DNA from: a virus
Length of the DNA stretch: 40,623 bases
Direction: 5' to 3' (one strand)
Virus record (IMG/VR): IMGVR_UViG_3300031178_000001
Under the pieces are notes generated by a model. The model was not told where the DNA came from. It ran no database searches and saw nothing but the letters and a program-made list of their open reading frames with translations. The position numbers and the translations under genes were made by a program. This document shows positions 1-40,623 of this stretch, in pieces. Every line of letters starts with the position of its first letter. Within the stretch, counting starts at the first letter, position 1.

Positions 1-127
1 AGGTAGCTGCTCCGCCAATGCGCAAAATGGTCGCCGTAAACGGTTGGAGGTTTCCGCATCTGTGACATTTACAGAGCCATAACGCTTGCCCCCGCTCGTT
101 CGTCCCGGCACGCTCAATCACTTCGAG
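1..127. repeat. Terminal direct repeat, identical to 40497-40623 (circularisation overlap)
   Basis: Base-by-base reading: aggtagctgctccgccaatgcgc...caatcacttcgag occurs at both ends. Confidence 0.95.
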
Positions 128-355
128 ATCGCCGAAACGCCGCCCGGACAGGTCGAGAGCATTCGCGGGCGTCCGCTTTCGCAGGCACCCACAGGACTTT
201 TTTCTGCCGGTAAGCAGTTGGCTTCTCGTGGCGACAGTGGTCTCGCCGCATGAGCATCGGCAGATATATGCCTTCTCTTTTCGCACTTTCTCTGGCGATT
301 CCTCGATGACCTCGAGCTCGCCAAACCGTTGGCCGGGTTCAATCGATGCTTTCAT
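1..355 (-). CDS. 5' part of a junction-spanning gene: DNA-binding protein with two Zn-ribbon repeats plus an AP2 domain (223 aa in total; continues 40623->40180)
   Basis: The ORF is open at the window edge, so it is absent from the ORF track. ATG at 355 overlaps the upstream stop (ATGA). Hand translation: MKASIEPGQRFGELEVIEESPEKVRKEKAYICRCSCGETTVATRSQLLTGRKKSCGCLRKRTPANALDLSGRRFGDLEVIERAGTNERG..., which runs in frame into the listed 40180..40617 ORF. Confidence 0.75.
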   Translation of the reverse strand, partial: MKASIEPGQRFGELEVIEESPEKVRKEKAYICRCSCGETTVATRSQLLTGRKKSCGCLRKRTPANALDLSGRRFGDLEVIERAGTNERGQALWLCKCHRCGNLQPFTATILRIGGAAT

Positions 356-744
356 CCCACGATCCCCACTACCACTGCATCTACAATCCGGATCTCTCCG
401 GGGTCCAGCATCCCGTCGTTGTCCACCCGGTTTCCGGCAATGATGACTTGCCGGGAGCCGTATGCGCGGTTCTGGGCGATGGCCTTCTCGATCTTCTTGG
501 CCAGCTCGGCCGGATCGTCGATGTAGTCCGCCCAAGTGGCGGCTGTCGTGCAGCACGTGCCGCCCGCCTTCTCGCCGTCCTCGCCGTGCAGATCGTAGGT
601 GGAGCAGTCATGCTCGACGTCCCACTCGTACGATTCTCGGCAGGTGTCGCCTACGCTGTATTCTTCGTCCGGGCAGAGGGCACGAACGCCGATATAGGGC
701 CATCCCTCGTCGATCAGTTGTTGCGCCAGTTCCATGTATTTCAT
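352..744 (-). CDS. Hypothetical protein, 130 aa (first gene of the minus-strand accessory cassette)
   Basis: GGAGGA RBS upstream of the ATG at 744. Its stop overlaps the next start (ATGA). No family recognised. Acidic, Cys-containing centre (GGTCCTTAATW). Confidence 0.7.
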   Translation of the reverse strand: MKYMELAQQLIDEGWPYIGVRALCPDEEYSVGDTCRESYEWDVEHDCSTYDLHGEDGEKAGGTCCTTAATWADYIDDPAELAKKIEKAIAQNRAYGSRQVIIAGNRVDNDGMLDPGEIRIVDAVVVGIVG

Positions 745-777: not shown

Positions 778-823
778 ATTATATCAAAAAGATTGTGCAA
801 TACAAGCGAACAGTATGCGAACA
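778..823 (-). promoter_or_regulatory. Candidate promoter of the minus-strand cassette with upstream direct repeats
   Basis: On the minus strand: extended -10 TGATATAAT (778-786) and -35 TTGTAT (800-805) with a 16-nt spacer. Two GCGAACA direct repeats (806-812, 817-823; 11-bp period) lie just upstream of the -35. Confidence 0.45.
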
Positions 824-853
824 AAATGTGAACTTTTCAAATATCGACAAAAC

Positions 854-958
854 TGGTATAATCCAATCAAGCCGTATGCGGAAGCACCGCTGCGGCCCTT
901 ATTATGCTTGCATACCGAACACCCATTCGCATATAATACGGATACAAACACTTGTTCG
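854..958 (+). promoter_or_regulatory. Candidate plus-strand promoters with two near-consensus LexA (Cheo) boxes
   Basis: Extended -10 TGGTATAAT at 854-862. Second promoter: TTGCAT (908-913), 18-nt spacer, TATAAT (932-937). CGAACACCCATTCG (917-930) and CAAACACTTGTTCG (945-958) each differ by one base from CGAAC-N4-GTTCG. Confidence 0.4.
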
Positions 959-971
959 GGGTGTGGTCCGT

Positions 972-1166
972 ATGCACAAGTATATCGGCCGTCGCGTCGA
1001 GATCATCTACCAGTCCGCTGACGGCCGCCTGACCCAGCGCGTGGTGCGCGTGCTGGGCGTGCAGGATGACGTTGTGCGGGCGTTCTGCGAAGCGTCCGGC
1101 GCGCCGCGGACGTTTCGGGTCGAGAACATTCTGGCTGCGCTGCCGGTGCGGAGGAGGTCGGCGTGA
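972..1166 (+). CDS. Small beta-rich protein, 64 aa (possibly WYL/SH3-like)
   Basis: Internal ATG at 972 of the 795..1166 ORF; the longer form would run across the promoter elements. Sequence MHKYIGRRVEIIYQSADGRLTQRVVRVLGVQDDVVRAFCEASGAPRTFRVENILA. Family assignment is from memory only. Confidence 0.55.
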   Translation: MHKYIGRRVEIIYQSADGRLTQRVVRVLGVQDDVVRAFCEASGAPRTFRVENILAALPVRRRSA

Positions 1167-1345
1167 GGCGTTGGCTCGGCCCAATCGAGACCTGCACCTG
1201 CAAAGCCCTCATGCGGCCGCGCTGGACCCGTGACCAGTGGCCGCAGGCGTATGTGTGCACGCGGTGCGGGCGGCCGGTGCCGGGGTATGAGCGGATGTGG
1301 ATGGAGAGGCAGAGGGAGATGGAGAAGGGAGAGCAGCGCGGATGA
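1163..1345 (+). CDS. Small Cys-containing (CxC...CxxC) protein, 60 aa
   Basis: GTG start overlaps the preceding stop (GTGA). Followed directly by an intrinsic terminator. Confidence 0.45.
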   Translation: MRRWLGPIETCTCKALMRPRWTRDQWPQAYVCTRCGRPVPGYERMWMERQREMEKGEQRG

Positions 1346-1545: not shown

Positions 1546-2799
1546 TCAATCAAGCGAGAGGTATGGTCCGAGGAGACTGTCCAGCTTTTCAACGTTCGCC
1601 CGCCGGCGCGCCTCGGTGACGTGGAGGTAGACGCGGCGCGTCACAGCGTCCGTCGAGTGGCCGAGCTGTTTCTGGATGTCCTCCAGCGACGCCCCGGCCT
1701 CAGCCGACAGGCTGGTGTACGTGTGCCGGAGGCTGTGCGGCGTGATCGATCGCGGCAGGCCGGCGAGATCAAGCAGGCGCGCCAGATCAGCCTCGAAGGT
1801 GAGAGGGTTGAGTGGGTAGCCGGGGTATCGCTTGTACGAGACAAAGGCAAAGTTCCGTTCCCGGTAAAACTTTTCACCGATCAGGAGCCGGAACGCTTTC
1901 ACATCGCGGAGCTGTGCGTCCAAGATGGCCGCGACCGTCCGGCTGATGTCAACGGTGCGGATCGAGGATCGATTTTTCGGCGTCTCAAGCCGGTACGCGC
2001 GGATGCCTTGCCGATGGTACAACGTGGCAATCACCCGGATCGTTCCGCGCCGCACGTCGACCCGCTGCTCCTCGAGCGCGCACAGCTCGCCAATTCGCAG
2101 GCCGGTGTTGGCGAGTATGATGATAGCCCTCATCGTCTGGCGCGCGCCGAACGCCTTCGCCGGGTCAGACAGGCTTTCCGCATACTCCTTTGCGATGCGG
2201 ATCAGACCGGCGAGTTGCTCTTTCTCGAGGTACTCCGGCAGCGGCTCGTCCTCTCCGCGCTCGAGCATCTCGAAAGACGGTCGCATGTTGGGTAACACTG
2301 CACCATCGGTCGGATTGGTACGGACAATTCCCATTTTGACCGCGATATGGTAGAGGATTCGCATTGCGGAATGTGCGCCTCGGATCGCGCTTTCGCCGAG
2401 GTTGTGGACGTCCCGGAGATCCAACAGATACTGCTGGTACTGAGTCGGTGTAATATCCTTGAGTCGCCGGCCGGCGAAGGCGATCCGCGCATATTTGAGG
2501 TTGGAGCGCATCACGTCGACGGTGTTCTGCTTGAGCTGCTTCGCCCTCGCATGCAGCTCGACCCCCTTCTCGGCCCACTCGGTAAACAGTATGTTCTCCT
2601 CATCGACAAATGTCCCCTCGAGCAGTTGCGCCTCGATTTTGATACCTTCTCGATATGCTTCCTGGGGCGTCGGAAAGGCCCGCGTCTCCTTTTGCTTCCT
2701 CCGGACTGTCCCATCCGGCTGCGTGGTCGGGACGCTGTATCGGTATGTGTATCCCTTCCCGCGACGCCGGACTTTTGGCGGCAGCTTTTCTTTTGACAT
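1546..2799 (-). CDS. int: Tyrosine recombinase / phage integrase, 417 aa
   Basis: C-terminal catalytic motifs are present: ...TGLRIGELCAL..., HSLRHTYTSL and LGHSTDAVTRRVYLH. N-terminal SAM-like/arm-binding region. Next to the repressor. Confidence 0.93.
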   Translation of the reverse strand: MSKEKLPPKVRRRGKGYTYRYSVPTTQPDGTVRRKQKETRAFPTPQEAYREGIKIEAQLLEGTFVDEENILFTEWAEKGVELHARAKQLKQNTVDVMRSNLKYARIAFAGRRLKDITPTQYQQYLLDLRDVHNLGESAIRGAHSAMRILYHIAVKMGIVRTNPTDGAVLPNMRPSFEMLERGEDEPLPEYLEKEQLAGLIRIAKEYAESLSDPAKAFGARQTMRAIIILANTGLRIGELCALEEQRVDVRRGTIRVIATLYHRQGIRAYRLETPKNRSSIRTVDISRTVAAILDAQLRDVKAFRLLIGEKFYRERNFAFVSYKRYPGYPLNPLTFEADLARLLDLAGLPRSITPHSLRHTYTSLSAEAGASLEDIQKQLGHSTDAVTRRVYLHVTEARRRANVEKLDSLLGPYLSLD

Positions 2800-2839: not shown

Positions 2840-3469
2840 TCACAGTATTGTGACGACTTGCACAGCTCTGCCGATAATTCGTGCCGGGTTGTCCGGAGTG
2901 ACGATTATCGGTTCGTACTCCGGGTTGTCAGGGAGCAGGATCAGCAGATCGCCTTGCCGCTTGACGCGCTTCAGTGTCGCCTCTTCGTCGCCGTTGACTA
3001 GGATGGCCGCAATTGCTCCGTTTTCTACATCTGGTTGTTCGCGGATCAGGACGAGCGAACCGTCCGGGATCGTCGGTTCCATACTCTTGCCCTTAGCGCG
3101 AAGATAAAACAGTTCACCGGCCGGGAGCCGTTCCGGCGATTCATATACATATTCACTTATATTTTGCTCCGCGAGGATCGGTTCTCCGCACGCGATGGTC
3201 CCCAGCACGGGGATCGGTACTGTTCTCGGTCCTGCGGGGGCGAGGTTCGAAGGACGTTCCTCGGTCAACATAGATTTTGGCACATTAAAGAAATCCGCCA
3301 TCTTTTGAATCTTGTCAATTCTCGGATACTTATCGCCGCTCAGCCACTGTGACACCGCCGAATCGCTCACCCCGATGTGTTCGGCGAGTGCGCGCTGGTC
3401 AATTCCTTTACTTTCCAATAACTTTTGAAGGTTTTCAGCCAAAACTTCACGGGCGCTTTTCTTAAGCAC
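2840..3469 (-). CDS. CI/LexA-like repressor (XRE HTH + S24 peptidase), 209 aa
   Basis: N-terminal HTH (QRALAEHIGVSDSAVSQWLSG). C-terminal S24 motifs GKSMEPTI...LKRV. GTG start with a GGAGGGG RBS. Confidence 0.92.
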   Translation of the reverse strand: MLKKSAREVLAENLQKLLESKGIDQRALAEHIGVSDSAVSQWLSGDKYPRIDKIQKMADFFNVPKSMLTEERPSNLAPAGPRTVPIPVLGTIACGEPILAEQNISEYVYESPERLPAGELFYLRAKGKSMEPTIPDGSLVLIREQPDVENGAIAAILVNGDEEATLKRVKRQGDLLILLPDNPEYEPIIVTPDNPARIIGRAVQVVTIL

Positions 3470-3485
3470 TATCCATCCCCTCCAA

Positions 3486-3571
3486 TGTTTATATTATAAA
3501 CAAAAAGTGAAAAAAGTAAACATTTATTTTTTACTTTAAGTGTTGACAATTAACTTTAAGTGAAATATCAT
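3486..3571. promoter_or_regulatory. Immunity switch: divergent promoters and operators O1/O2
   Basis: Plus strand: TTGACA (3543-3548), 17-nt spacer, TATCAT (3566-3571). Minus strand: TATAAT (3493-3498) and TTTACT (3515-3520). ACTTTAAGT palindromes at 3533-3541 and 3553-3561. An extra 8+1+8 palindrome TGTTTATATTATAAACA at 3486-3502. Confidence 0.7.
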
Positions 3572-3610: not shown

Positions 3611-3814
3611 ATGACTGTACAGCTTACGCTCGAAGCTCTGAGGGTTAACGCTGGTTTTACGCAACAAGATGTAGCGGATAGACTCGGTGTTTCGCGCTTT
3701 ACCGTCATGAAATGGGAAAGCGGCGAAGTTAAGCCGAAGGAGCTTGTGATCTACGCGCTCGCGAAACTTTATGACGTCGATATTGACGTTATAAAGGTTC
3801 CTTCGTCTGCATGA
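3611..3814 (+). CDS. Cro-like XRE-family HTH protein, 67 aa
   Basis: HTH FTQQDVADRLGVSRFTVMKWESG. Divergent from the repressor. Confidence 0.85.
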   Translation: MTVQLTLEALRVNAGFTQQDVADRLGVSRFTVMKWESGEVKPKELVIYALAKLYDVDIDVIKVPSSA

Positions 3815-3816
3815 AT

Positions 3817-3829
3817 TTACTTTAAGTAA
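3817..3829. promoter_or_regulatory. Third operator copy O3 (perfect 13-bp palindrome TTACTTTAAGTAA)
   Basis: Same core as O1/O2. Lies 3 bp after the cro-like stop codon. Confidence 0.55.
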
Positions 3830-3845
3830 AGTGAGGCGGCGGAAA

Positions 3846-4130
3846 ATGGAGCAAGCAATCAACGCAATTCGCAGCATCTTGCTCCTGATCCCGGAAGATC
3901 AGCGGCAGGATGTCATCCGCCAGCTCAGCCGAGAGGTGGGTGCCGTGCAGAGCGACGTGCCGCGCATGTACACGGATCATGAGGTGGCAGCTCGGTATCA
4001 GGTGCATGTGCGGACAGTGCGCAACTGGATTACCAGCGGGCGGCTGCGCGGTTGCCAGATCGACCGGTACTGGTATTCGCGGGCTGATTGGCTGGATGAG
4101 TTTGAACAGAAGGAGGTGACCACCGCATGA
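3846..4130 (+). CDS. HTH_17/excisionase-type DNA-binding protein, 94 aa
   Basis: ATG 3846 with a GAGG RBS. Motif MYTDHEVAARYQVHVRTVRNWITSGRLRG. Confidence 0.65.
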   Translation: MEQAINAIRSILLLIPEDQRQDVIRQLSREVGAVQSDVPRMYTDHEVAARYQVHVRTVRNWITSGRLRGCQIDRYWYSRADWLDEFEQKEVTTA

Positions 4131-38829: not shown

Positions 38830-39231
38830 ATGGAAAACCTGTTTAAAACCATCGTTGCAATCGGCGGCGCGGCCGCCTCTTATCTTTTCGGGGGGTGGTC
38901 GTCGTTGCTTTCGATTCTGCTTACGTTTGTTGTGTTGGATTATGTGACCGGGTTCGCAGCCGCCGCAAAAGAAGGAAAGCTGAACAGCGAAGTCGGTGCA
39001 TGGGGCATCGCGAAGAAGGTCGGCATCTTCGCCGTTGTGGCCGCCGCGCACTTGGTGGATACCGCACTGGGCGCCGCCCACCTTTTCCGAGATGCGGCGA
39101 TATTTTTCTTTCTCGCAAACGAGCTGCTCAGCGTGATCGAAAACGCTGGCCGGATCGGTGTTCCCGTTCCGCCCGTCATGCAGCGGGCGGTGGAAGTGCT
39201 GCGCGGTAAGTCGGAGGGTGATGCGAAATGA
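38830..39231 (+). CDS. Holin (Holin_4_1/TcdE-like), 133 aa
   Basis: ATG 38830 after a GGAGGTG RBS. LDYVTGFAAAAKEGKLNSEVGAWGIAKKVGIF motif. Three TM segments. Confidence 0.8.
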   Translation: MENLFKTIVAIGGAAASYLFGGWSSLLSILLTFVVLDYVTGFAAAAKEGKLNSEVGAWGIAKKVGIFAVVAAAHLVDTALGAAHLFRDAAIFFFLANELLSVIENAGRIGVPVPPVMQRAVEVLRGKSEGDAK

Positions 39232-39950
39232 AGATTGTACTGGATGCAGGGCATGGTCCGAACACACCCGGCAAGCGGTCCCCGGACGGATCGCTCCGCG
39301 AGTACCAGTTTAACTCGGCGGTCGCCCGGTACGTCGCCGACGCGCTCCTGCATGGATATGAGGGCGTCGATATCCTGCTGACGCACGCAGATGATCGGGA
39401 CGTGCCGCTCAAGGAGCGCACGGACAAGGCGAATGCGTGGAAGGCTGATCTGTTCGTTTCGATCCACGCCAACGCGGCCGGCGACGGCGGCTGGAACAGC
39501 GCGCAGGGCATCGAGACGTTCGTCTATGATACGCGCCCGCCAGCGGCCGTCGCGCTCGCCAACGCTGTTCAGCGGCAATTGATCCGCGCCACGGGCCGCC
39601 CGGATCGCGGCGTGAAGTCTGCGAACTTCCACGTGTTGCGCGAGACCCGCATGACGGCCATCCTGATCGAATGTGGGTTTATGACGAACCGTGAGGAGTG
39701 CGAGCTGCTCAAGAGCGACGAATACCGCCGCAAGTGCGCGGAGGCCATCGTCGCCGGGATCGTGGAGACATACGGACTCCGGCCGAAGCAGCCTGCGCAG
39801 CCGACCGTGGAGGGCTGGCGATCCGAGTTTGCGGAGGCGCGTGTGTGGGCGGTCGAGCAGGGCATCACGGACGGCAGCCGGCCGAAGGACACGGTGACGC
39901 GCGAGGATCTCTGGGTGATGTTGTACAGAGCATTCGGCGCCCAGAAATGA
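39228..39950 (+). CDS. N-acetylmuramoyl-L-alanine amidase (Amidase_3) endolysin, 240 aa
   Basis: KIVLDAGHGPNTPGK, DLFVSIHANA, NFHVLRET, ILIECGFMTN. Confidence 0.9.
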   Translation: MKIVLDAGHGPNTPGKRSPDGSLREYQFNSAVARYVADALLHGYEGVDILLTHADDRDVPLKERTDKANAWKADLFVSIHANAAGDGGWNSAQGIETFVYDTRPPAAVALANAVQRQLIRATGRPDRGVKSANFHVLRETRMTAILIECGFMTNREECELLKSDEYRRKCAEAIVAGIVETYGLRPKQPAQPTVEGWRSEFAEARVWAVEQGITDGSRPKDTVTREDLWVMLYRAFGAQK

Positions 39951-39952
39951 TC

Positions 39953-39987
39953 GATCCCCGCTCGGCTATGCGCTGGGCGGGGATTTT
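39953..39987 (+). terminator. Hairpin terminator between convergent genes
   Basis: Stem ATCCCCGC/GCGGGGAT (39954-39984) then TTT. Overlaps the 3' end of the minus-strand HTH gene. Confidence 0.5.
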
Positions 39988-40187
39988 GTGCTTTGGGCAT
40001 ATTCCTCCGCCCGATCTTTCCTCCACAGCGGCCGCCCCTCGAACACAGCGTCCGGCCGGAGGAACTTTCCACGGTAGGTGGGTTTCAGCGCCCGTTGGCC
40101 GGCCAGACTGACGTTCTGTTGGGTTGTTCCGAGCAGACGGGCGAATTCTGCGGCGCCGATGAGGTCAAGGATTGTGTGGTCAGCCAT
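39966..40187 (-). CDS. Small HTH DNA-binding protein, 73 aa (last gene of the minus-strand cassette)
   Basis: ATG 40187 overlaps the AP2 gene stop by 8 nt. AEFARLLGTTQQNVS HTH motif. Confidence 0.6.
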   Translation of the reverse strand: MADHTILDLIGAAEFARLLGTTQQNVSLAGQRALKPTYRGKFLRPDAVFEGRPLWRKDRAEEYAQSTKSPPSA

Positions 40188-40623
40188 TCGGTTCATCCTT
40201 TCGTTTTGCCTTTTCGAGATACGGTCTGTGATACTGCTCCTCAAATGCCTTACGATCCGCGATTGCTTCTGCCAGCGTGCTTCGCGGCGGTCCCCATTTC
40301 CGTTTTCCCTTCACCGATATATGCGCCTCGAAAAACTCCTTACCGTTCCGCATGCGCCGATGCACGCCCTTGATGCCTGTACCGCTGTCCGACCTGACCT
40401 TTTTGGTCAGTAGCGGCACCTGTACGCCGTCAACGGTGTATTTGGTGTCGAGTGCTTGTCTTGCAGCGCGAATGTGATCGTGCTTAGAACACCCGCAGGT
40501 AGCTGCTCCGCCAATGCGCAAAATGGTCGCCGTAAACGGTTGGAGGTTTCCGCATCTGTGACATTTACAGAGCCATAACGCTTGCCCCCGCTCGTTCGTC
40601 CCGGCACGCTCAATCACTTCGAG
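40180..40623 (-). CDS. 3' part of the junction-spanning two-Zn-ribbon + AP2-domain gene
   Basis: Second GRRFGDLEVIERA...WLCKCHRCG...TCGCS repeat, then AP2-type GVHRRMRNGKEFFEAHISVKGKRKWGPPRSTLAEAIADRKAFEEQY. The 'M' at 40617 in the track is an internal GTG (Val). Confidence 0.75.
   Translation of the reverse strand, partial: LEVIERAGTNERGQALWLCKCHRCGNLQPFTATILRIGGAATCGCSKHDHIRAARQALDTKYTVDGVQVPLLTKKVRSDSGTGIKGVHRRMRNGKEFFEAHISVKGKRKWGPPRSTLAEAIADRKAFEEQYHRPYLEKAKRKDEPNG
40497..40623. repeat. Terminal direct repeat, identical to 1-127
   Basis: See 1-127. Confidence 0.95.

Follow-up and report, generated by a model that had tools for sequence, protein, structure and literature searches.

The virus record IMGVR_UViG_3300031178_000001 (40,623 nt, referred to throughout as the window, whose numbering we use) carries a cassette of three minus-strand genes, here labelled g1, g2 and g3, at the junction between its lysin and its attP-integrase region. 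Judging from the sequence, we consider it probable that this cassette is an anti-CRISPR-type counter-defence operon, that is, an inhibitor island in which g1 would be a new candidate inhibitor or effector, g2 a silencer of the CasPR family and/or a regulator, and g3 an autoregulator resembling the Aca proteins of anti-CRISPR (Acr) operons. The original prediction had proposed a possible new system, and this holds for g1 alone. The cassette as a whole is better called an acr or inhibitor island, because g2 has the architecture of a CasPR, because of the domain contexts in which g1 is found, because a g1 homologue has an AcrIC5 neighbour and because there is no match to the PADLOC defence models. 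The type of locus is known and g2 is a new member of a described class; what is new here is g1, which belongs to an unannotated family.

Since bases 1-127 are repeated exactly at 40497-40623, a terminal redundancy of 127 bp, the record represents a 40,496-bp circle and hence a circular or circularly permuted phage genome. The artificial junction falls inside g2, which is read correctly across it on the 40,496-bp circle. The phage is most likely a temperate phage of Bacillota, infecting Paenibacillaceae or Bacillaceae. The cassette is made up as follows:

744 to 352, minus strand: g1, 130 aa, acidic (pI 4.2), with its open reading frame (ORF) and ribosome-binding site read from the sequence
355 to 352, minus strand: overlap of g1 and g2, 4 nt (ATGA), in which the g1 stop shares bases with the g2 start
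355 to 1, then 40496 to 40180, minus strand: g2, 672 nt, 223 aa, rebuilt across the junction
1 to 355, minus strand: N-terminal part of g2, residues 1-118, with CapR-type zinc finger 1 and most of finger 2
40180 to 40496, minus strand: C-terminal part of g2, residues 119-223, with the two remaining cysteines of finger 2 (C119, C121), a linker helix and AP2
40180 to 40187, minus strand: overlap of g2 and g3, 8 nt, with the g3 start within the g2 end
40187 to 39966, minus strand: g3, 73 aa, a basic helix-turn-helix (HTH) protein

The architecture of g2 and its likeness to the CasPRs

The CasPRs are phage proteins composed of CapR zinc finger(s) and an AP2 domain, which bind sites inside the cas8b or cas9 coding sequences, silencing transcription, and which are abundant in the acr loci of Bacillota prophages, usually beside other Acrs (Sanderson et al., bioRxiv 2026, 10.64898/2026.02.23.707548). 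Their universally conserved cysteines are C33, C35, C37, C56 and C58; CasPRIB1 is active in lysogeny and not in lytic infection, and the HTH domains fused in CasPRIB2 are autoregulatory in the authors' opinion (10.64898/2026.02.23.707548). The same authors assign membership by BLASTP to CasPRIB1 (QDA75636.1) at E<=1e-4 and at least 70% coverage (10.64898/2026.02.23.707548).

As judged from alignments and a structural model, g2 has this CasPR-type architecture of CapR plus AP2 with no nuclease. Its cysteines follow the pattern CxCxC-x18-CxC, with C32/C34/C36/C55/C57 in finger 1, spaced identically to the conserved cysteines of the CasPRs, and C95/C97/C100/C119/C121 in the second unit; the two repeats read "G.RFG.L.V....(x).W.C.C.CG....(x)..L..G...SCGC". 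At the C-terminus, at about residues 160-218 in alignments, lies the AP2 signature 'GxKGV...Y.A.I..KGK.....F....AI.AR..AE..Y'. The AlphaFold2 (AF2) model of g2 (predicted local distance difference test, pLDDT, 88) places beta-beta-beta-alpha units at residues 14-49 and 77-113, followed by the linker helix and, at residues 163-218, by a three-stranded sheet packed on a long helix in AP2-like manner. In this model the 223 residues are fully taken up by the two zinc fingers, the linker helix and AP2, with no room for a nuclease. Neither HNH nor any other nuclease domain was found in g2, and no HNH in the 48 orthologues scanned, of which eight match Pfam CapR (best E 7.5e-5) and four Pfam AP2; the latter also matches gp22 of Listeria phage A006 and the CD1801 protein. 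Among the PHROGs, phrog_374 ('HNH endonuclease') matches the g2 repeats with an E value of 1.3e-34, via the DNA-binding parts only, and phrog_99 and phrog_4578, both annotated as HNH endonucleases, match residues 150-217. Searches of PDB sequences with g2 and g3 found nothing, and the whole g2 model, which is multi-domain and has a predicted template modelling score (pTM) of 0.48, gave nothing significant against PDB folds.

At E<=1e-10 we found 101 g2 homologues, mostly of 213-233 aa, in Bacillus, Paenibacillus, Fictibacillus, Heyndrickxia, Caldifermentibacillus and Brevibacillus, and a single distant match of 338 aa among them carries HNH. In GenBank phages, g2 matches AP2 genes of Listeria, Clostridioides and Streptococcus dysgalactiae phages. 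One of these is gp22 of Listeria phage A006, with 31% identity across all of gp22 (E 3e-17), which comes immediately after the annotated AcrIIA1 in a locus that reads gp25-gp24-AcrIIA1-gp22[AP2]-gp21. The A006 acr locus resembles the window cassette in lying between int/attP and ply/hol and running counter to the late genes, in having a small divergent gene pair towards attP (gp26-gp27 in A006), and in placing an AP2 protein homologous to g2 after one or more small upstream proteins. It differs in that the window is without an AcrIIA1 homologue and has the unrelated g1 as the upstream gene, while the HTH function would come from g3, which follows the AP2 gene. More widely, acr loci often contain AP2 genes, one AcrIC5 homologue adjoins an AP2 gene (PMC10732046), and an acrIIA3-AP2 operon has been described (PMC12658196).

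Set beside CasPRIB1, CasPRIB2 and CasPRIIA1, g2 shares the CxCxC-x18-CxC CapR fingers, the AP2 domain and the lack of a nuclease, and architectures with several CapR domains are known in that family. Also shared is the place in a prophage accessory locus, within a short operon that includes further small genes and an HTH protein. In contrast, g2 combines two CapR domains and leaves the HTH to a separate gene, g3, in place of a fused one, and its orthologues have Paenibacillus, Bacillus, Fictibacillus and Heyndrickxia as hosts, whereas those of the CasPRs are Listeria, Streptococcus and Clostridioides. HNH-AP2 homing endonucleases have the DNA-binding modules (CapR-type repeats, AP2) in common with g2, but g2 and most of its orthologues (213-233 aa) are without a nuclease domain. 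With this CasPR architecture and a Listeria homologue that adjoins AcrIIA1, the earlier view that no function can be read from the sequence no longer holds; nor does that of the AP2 protein as a mere DNA-binding partner, since g2 is probably an effector in its own right and not just the companion of an unknown one.

The g1 family and its occurrence in virion-delivered proteins

The g1 protein has no match in Pfam (E<=1), PHROGs, PADLOC, NCBIfam or PDB sequences. Its 32 close homologues, from Fictibacillus, Robertmurraya and metagenome-assembled genomes of Caudoviricetes, are all unnamed or "hypothetical", and in one relative (L018, IMGVR_UViG_2199352008_000082) the protein is 93% identical to that of the window. 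An exhaustive profile search gave 297 distant cluster representatives, and a scan of genome contigs added homologues in Paenibacillus, Gorillibacterium, Bacillus and Eisenbergiella; homologues on plasmids were searched for and none was found. The AF2 model is confident (pLDDT 87) and shows an alpha+beta sandwich that includes a long, conserved loop; for this model Foldseek returned no significant match in the PDB (the top one, the Rubisco small subunit, has a probability of 0.28) and BFVD only two neighbours, both uncharacterised phage proteins.

Near-invariant across the family are R21, G32, S38, W41, D42, D46, G62, Y95, D114 and E117, a pattern that suggests a pocket or an active site and not a metal cluster. 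Several specific identities were rejected. Although R21, S38 and E117 are about 99% conserved, we do not take g1 for an ADP-ribosyltransferase (ART) of the R-S-E type, because it is too small, because its motif is D-x-x-E and not E-x-E, and because it has no similarity to the ART fold (none by Foldseek; pertussis toxin at a probability of 0.04). A nuclease acting as partner of the nuclease-less g2 was dismissed as well, because neither Lys nor His is conserved and no PD-(D/E)xK or HNH pattern is present, as was a zinc protein, since the cysteines are not conserved across the family.

Most members of the family stand alone at 105-150 aa, and some are embedded in larger proteins. One of 3221 aa (P0081) has the g1 domain at 1184-1298, ART-PolyVal at 1340-1506 and a C-terminal Peptidase_M23, another of 1348 aa (P0163) combines it with LPD3, and a further g1-domain protein has 2325 aa; in two Phage_Mu_F head proteins (P0067 and P0127) the g1 domain forms the C-terminus. 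Polyvalent proteins and MuF fusions carry multiple effectors, are packaged in virions and are injected with the DNA, and solo versions of polyvalent domains have been proposed to facilitate the early phase of invasion (Iyer et al. 2017, PMC5512222). The g1 domain occurs in the same settings as these domains (LPDs; Iyer, Burroughs, Anand & Aravind 2017), namely in giant multi-domain proteins, at MuF C-termini and as a stand-alone gene, but g1 matches none of the LPD models in Pfam, which may not hold all of LPD1-40, and in the window it lies away from the structural genes, in an acr-like operon. In three of the fusion proteins (P0124, P0055 and P0087) a linker motif, 'NPYHD..GRF(T/A).(A/K)PGGG', is repeated ahead of the g1 domain, and P0124 also has a JAB-like 'HNHPS......S..D' motif; the NPYHD-type linkers and the JAB-like motif may be processing sites and a processing peptidase, respectively.

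On this sequence evidence we regard g1 as a candidate new counter-defence inhibitor or effector. A bolder proposal, which we hold to be rather doubtful, is that g1 founds a new fold family, whose members would counter defence by catalysis or ligand binding through a pocket formed by R21/S38/W41/D42/D46/D114/E117. Phages would deploy it both as a virion-injected polyvalent/MuF module and as a stand-alone gene, early or lysogenic, that is coupled to a silencer of CasPR type, and its target would be a host immune component or signalling molecule of broad conservation and not one Cas protein.

Gene association and proposed working of the operon

The two overlaps (ATGA and 8 nt), the homologues of each gene and the purifying selection on all three, with ratios of non-synonymous to synonymous substitution (dN/dS) of 0.11-0.23 against two relatives (0.15-0.23 for g1, 0.11-0.17 for g3), bear out the three-gene, translationally coupled minus-strand cassette that had been proposed. 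For the gene contexts, we reduced 47 loci with g1 homologues, plus that of the window itself, to 33 non-redundant groups. In 14 of the 33, a g2-type protein lies next to the g1 homologue, up- or downstream, often with overlapping stop and start codons, and by motif inspection about 24 of the 33 have some DNA-binding neighbour, be it a g2-type protein, a small HTH protein or a Zn-ribbon-rich protein. The commonest large neighbours within 3 kb of the g1 homologues (31 loci) are integrases or recombinases and endolysins, nine of each.

The order g1-g2-g3 is kept in L130 and L018 and shuffled in L002 and L007, so that the three genes do occur together in related phages. Whereas the window reads g1, g2, g3, the order in Fictibacillus is Gp111, g2, HTH, g1, and in a Robertmurraya prophage it is g1, HTH_17+AcrIC5, g2; the middle gene there, between the g1 and g2 homologues, matches Pfam AcrIC5 at 4.5e-23 and has HTH_17 fused to it. 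We also inspected the contexts of four g2 orthologues (L130, L131, L132 and L133). Because L130 has g1-g2-g3 in a phage with a serine recombinase and a different lysin, the three genes move as a module. In the other three Phage_Gp111 replaces g1 upstream of g2, and L002 has both; since the upstream gene is either g1 or Phage_Gp111, the g2-g3 pair is a constant anchor and the first gene exchangeable cargo.

By analogy, a constant g2-g3 pair with variable cargo mirrors the logic of Acr-Aca loci (Aca1-Aca14), in which a strong promoter is followed by variable small cargo and a conserved small DNA-binding gene. The cassette, whose genes overlap and are coupled, has a like arrangement, with g1 or Phage_Gp111 as alternative cargo of the g2-g3 pair, but it differs in that the libraries searched gave no described Aca family as a match for g3 and in that its candidate operator is a short 4+4 palindrome, predicted from sequence. 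Phage_Gp111 (PF07410), function-less in Pfam, sits at the g1 position directly ahead of g2 orthologues, its stop codon overlapping their start (L131 4615-5001, L132 4603-5001, L133 4640-4987, L002 4650-5009) and is itself a second counter-defence candidate by guilt of association. In gut-type phages, a family of Zn-ribbon-rich proteins of 158-422 aa recurs in the place of CapR-AP2 as the partner of g1 homologues, directly downstream of them (L003-L006, L012, L014, L044, L045, L063). These proteins have repeated motifs such as 'C..CG..F.GGPRA.YCP.CR', are more divergent in L012 and L044 and in some cases have an N-terminal HTH; none has a Pfam match.

The g3 protein has weak PHROG matches to a DNA-binding protein and to a repressor. 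In L130 and L018 an orthologue of 73 aa comes next after g2 and overlaps it in the same way, and HTH genes that are g3-like or analogous, with about 70 aa (86 aa in L054), come after g2 orthologues in L054, L131, L132, L002 and L001. Tightly paired with g2, g3 is probably an Aca-like autoregulator. A phage excisionase is unlikely, g3 being tied to g2 in phages with unrelated recombinases, and g3 need not be one because an HTH_17-type gene already follows cro (3831-4130). This latter gene, an ORF of 99 aa on the plus strand directly after cro, has a C-terminal HTH_17/excisionase-like motif (...VRTVRNWITSGRL...) and is likelier than g3 to be an excisionase or early regulator.

The signals of the cassette and the genes that frame it are the following:

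778 to 805, minus strand: cassette promoter, extended -10 TGATATAAT (786 to 778) and weak -35 TTGTAT (805 to 800)
39953 to 39985, no strand assigned: G+C-rich hairpin with a 14-bp stem, between the convergent late operon and cassette
39228 to 39950, plus strand: endolysin, late operon
1546 to 2799, minus strand: int, integrase
2840 to 3469, minus strand: cI, LexA-like CI repressor, immunity region
3611 to 3814, plus strand: cro, divergent from cI

The mapped ORFs confirm that the cassette lies between the endolysin and int/attP, opposite to the late operon, and the holin too is where it had been placed. The extended -10 (TGATATAAT), read directly from the sequence, is perfect, and the ribosome-binding site of g1 is GGAGG at 757 to 753, 8 nt upstream of the ATG; a consensus promoter scanner did not list the promoter because its -35 is weak. 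It is retained in the relatives L018 and L130, and with this promoter of its own and the synteny in relatives the cassette stands as the coherent accessory unit at the lysis-integrase hotspot that it had been thought to be. The hairpin at which it was said to end exists at that place and overlaps the final 20 nt of g3 (as minus-strand RNA, -26.8 kcal/mol, z-score -2.6), but the minus strand has just a weak U stretch afterwards and no proper U-tract, and the scanner classes 39953-39985 as a plus-strand terminator with 14 pairs and a T-run; because the T-run is on the plus strand, the hairpin primarily terminates the endolysin and late operon.

At the -35, a palindrome TTGT-N5-ACAA (805 to 793), whose arms are invariant and whose 5-nt centre varies in three close relatives, is inferred from sequence to be the candidate operator of the cassette. 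Three copies of ACTTTAAGT(G/A), at 3532-3562 and 3818-3828 around the divergent cI/cro promoters, are probable CI operators. A search of the window for this motif (ACTTTAAGTR) found these three copies in the immunity region and none near the cassette promoter. Control of the cassette by CI was rejected: the promoter is not visibly under CI control, because ACTTTAAGTR is confined to the immunity region. Expression in the lysogen is plausible given the missing CI operator and the precedent of CasPRIB1, which is active in lysogeny, and the absence of the operator is also compatible with immediate expression when the DNA enters.

A cluster of GTATGC motifs (873-976) was not adopted as an operator array, since the motif also occurs in coding regions. 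SGTATGCR has 15 matches in the window against 4.2 expected, and motifs of GTATGC type lie in the divergent control region and 5' untranslated region (UTR) of the plus-strand genes (811-976) at 813, 874 and 970 on the plus and at 909-916 on the minus strand; the fold of the 5'-UTR is not significant (z -1.6). Tandem 11-nt repeats, GCGAACAGTAT/GCGAACAAAAT, occupy 806-827. Relative to window 825-875, L018 has a 51-bp deletion, in which a promoter-like site on the plus strand is lost and the cassette promoter is retained.

In the mechanism that we infer, as regards biochemical activities, targets and timing of expression alike, the strong sigma-A extended -10 promoter would fire once the DNA is in the cell and, without a CI operator, also from the prophage. 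The small acidic g1 would be the conventional effector that inactivates a host immune component. The g2 protein would bind a specific host DNA site, by precedent in a cas or other defence gene, and block its transcription, thereby keeping host immunity low during lysogeny, and it may also act on the cassette's own promoter. Translationally coupled to g2, g3 would be an autorepressor that damps the strong promoter, perhaps via the TTGT-N5-ACAA at the -35. If this is true, g1 becomes a testable inhibitor candidate from a family of about 300 clusters without annotation or solved structural relative; it would link acr-type operons with virion-delivered polyvalent proteins and could give an unexplained polyvalent domain a role. 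The CasPR class would extend to phages of Paenibacillaceae and Bacillaceae in a split form, with a two-finger CapR-AP2 protein and a separate HTH, and the g2-g3 pair could be used as an anchor for guilt-by-association searches, in which Phage_Gp111 becomes a second candidate.

Competing explanations and further observations

Several points weigh against a counter-defence operon. The key functional paper on the CasPRs is a preprint, and g2 is likened to CasPRIB1 by architecture, homology having been compared only through Listeria phage A006 gp22. By itself g2 falls below Pfam detection for both CapR and AP2. With at least 503 viral loci the CapR-repeat family is huge, and of 71 relatives scanned some have nuclease-type domains (HNH_3 in four, DUF2726 in four). 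The g1 protein is without any annotated relative, and its polar R21, S38, W41, D42, D46, D114 and E117 resemble an enzyme or ligand pocket more than a stoichiometric Acr. Nine of the 33 g1 groups are without an evident DNA-binding partner, and the association is weaker in the direction from g2 to g1, with g1 at only four of the best 80 g2-type loci. No gene of the cassette matches the validated Acr and anti-defence families.

A first alternative is a lysogenic-conversion cassette guarding the lysogen, in which g2 and g3 would repress genes of superinfecting phages and g1 would be an exclusion or abortive effector, in line with the defence or superinfection exclusion that the original prediction had put forward. 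The moron position next to attR, the cassette's own promoter and the missing CI operator would all fit, as would CasPRIB1, which works in lysogeny and not in lytic infection. This explanation stays plausible because the prototypes of CapR repress phage genes: these domains were first described as phage-gene repressors, and the prototype CapR, from the Vibrio PLE satellite, is a repressor of phage capsid genes. It is nevertheless disfavoured, and we rate it as unlikely, since g1, g2 and g3 have no PADLOC match, the g1 domain is built into virion-delivered polyvalent/MuF proteins, tools of attack whose place of action is a cell just invaded and not a resident lysogen, a gene with an AcrIC5 domain flanks one g1 homologue, and the homologous Listeria locus is a validated acr locus.

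The three genes could also have no common function, g2 being a nuclease-less relic or relative of an HNH-AP2 homing endonuclease, g3 an excisionase-like or other regulator and g1 an unrelated moron. PHROGs indeed places the g2 repeats and AP2 under 'HNH endonuclease', some g2 relatives carry HNH or DUF2726, the g2 family is far bigger than that of g1 (with g1 at so few of the best g2-type loci), and g3-like proteins resemble HTH_17-type excisionase folds at some loci. Against this stand the translational coupling on both sides and the purifying selection on all three genes, the conservation of the nuclease-free form, mostly 213-233 aa, over the 101 homologues (E<=1e-10) and several genera, the conserved pairing of g2 with g3, with which g1 co-occurs in shuffled order in distant hosts, and the HTH_17-like gene that the phage already has after cro (3831-4130), so that we think a chance assembly of this kind decidedly unlikely.

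A third alternative makes g1 a toxin domain of the kind seen in MuF polymorphic toxins, and the cassette a toxin-regulator or toxin-antitoxin/abortive module, with g1 held in check, in expression or activity, by g2 and/or g3. The g1 domain does lie at the Phage_Mu_F C-terminus, which is the toxin position in such proteins and in one case is followed by a 69-aa ORF, and the enzyme-like conserved polar residues and the tightly coupled HTH gene would fit as well. We nevertheless rate this alternative as very improbable, because g1 comes first behind a strong promoter and is followed by DNA-binding proteins and not by a small protein dedicated to immunity, because several homologues of g1 (L016, L030) stand without any neighbouring partner, and because g1 is small and acidic with no similarity to known toxin folds.

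Having weighed these alternatives, we retain the counter-defence operon as the most probable reading of the cassette. Towards attP, two further genes lie on the opposite strand, at 972-1166 and 1163-1345 (both plus), which encode a stand-alone WYL-like protein of 64 aa and a CxxC...CxxC zinc-finger protein of 60 aa. The former matches Pfam WYL at 1.2e-5 and also the WYL models of PADLOC, being the only protein here to do so, as g1, g2 and g3 match none of the PADLOC defence models. This divergent pair has an extended -10 of its own in a promoter-like site at 834-862 (plus) and may belong to the same accessory island. At another g1 locus (L024, 6674-7117), a secreted protein of 148 aa, NucA/NucB DNase-like by eye, comes after the g1 homologue and its HTH partner. 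No tRNA gene is present in the window, and an Rfam scan of it gave no match. Between the zinc-finger gene and int, direct repeats of 19 nt, TTGCCCACAAC(G/A)TGCCCAC, at 1370-1388 and 1522-1540 flank a terminator-like hairpin (1422-1447) and are candidate arm-binding sites of the integrase in attP, which lies around 1346-1545.

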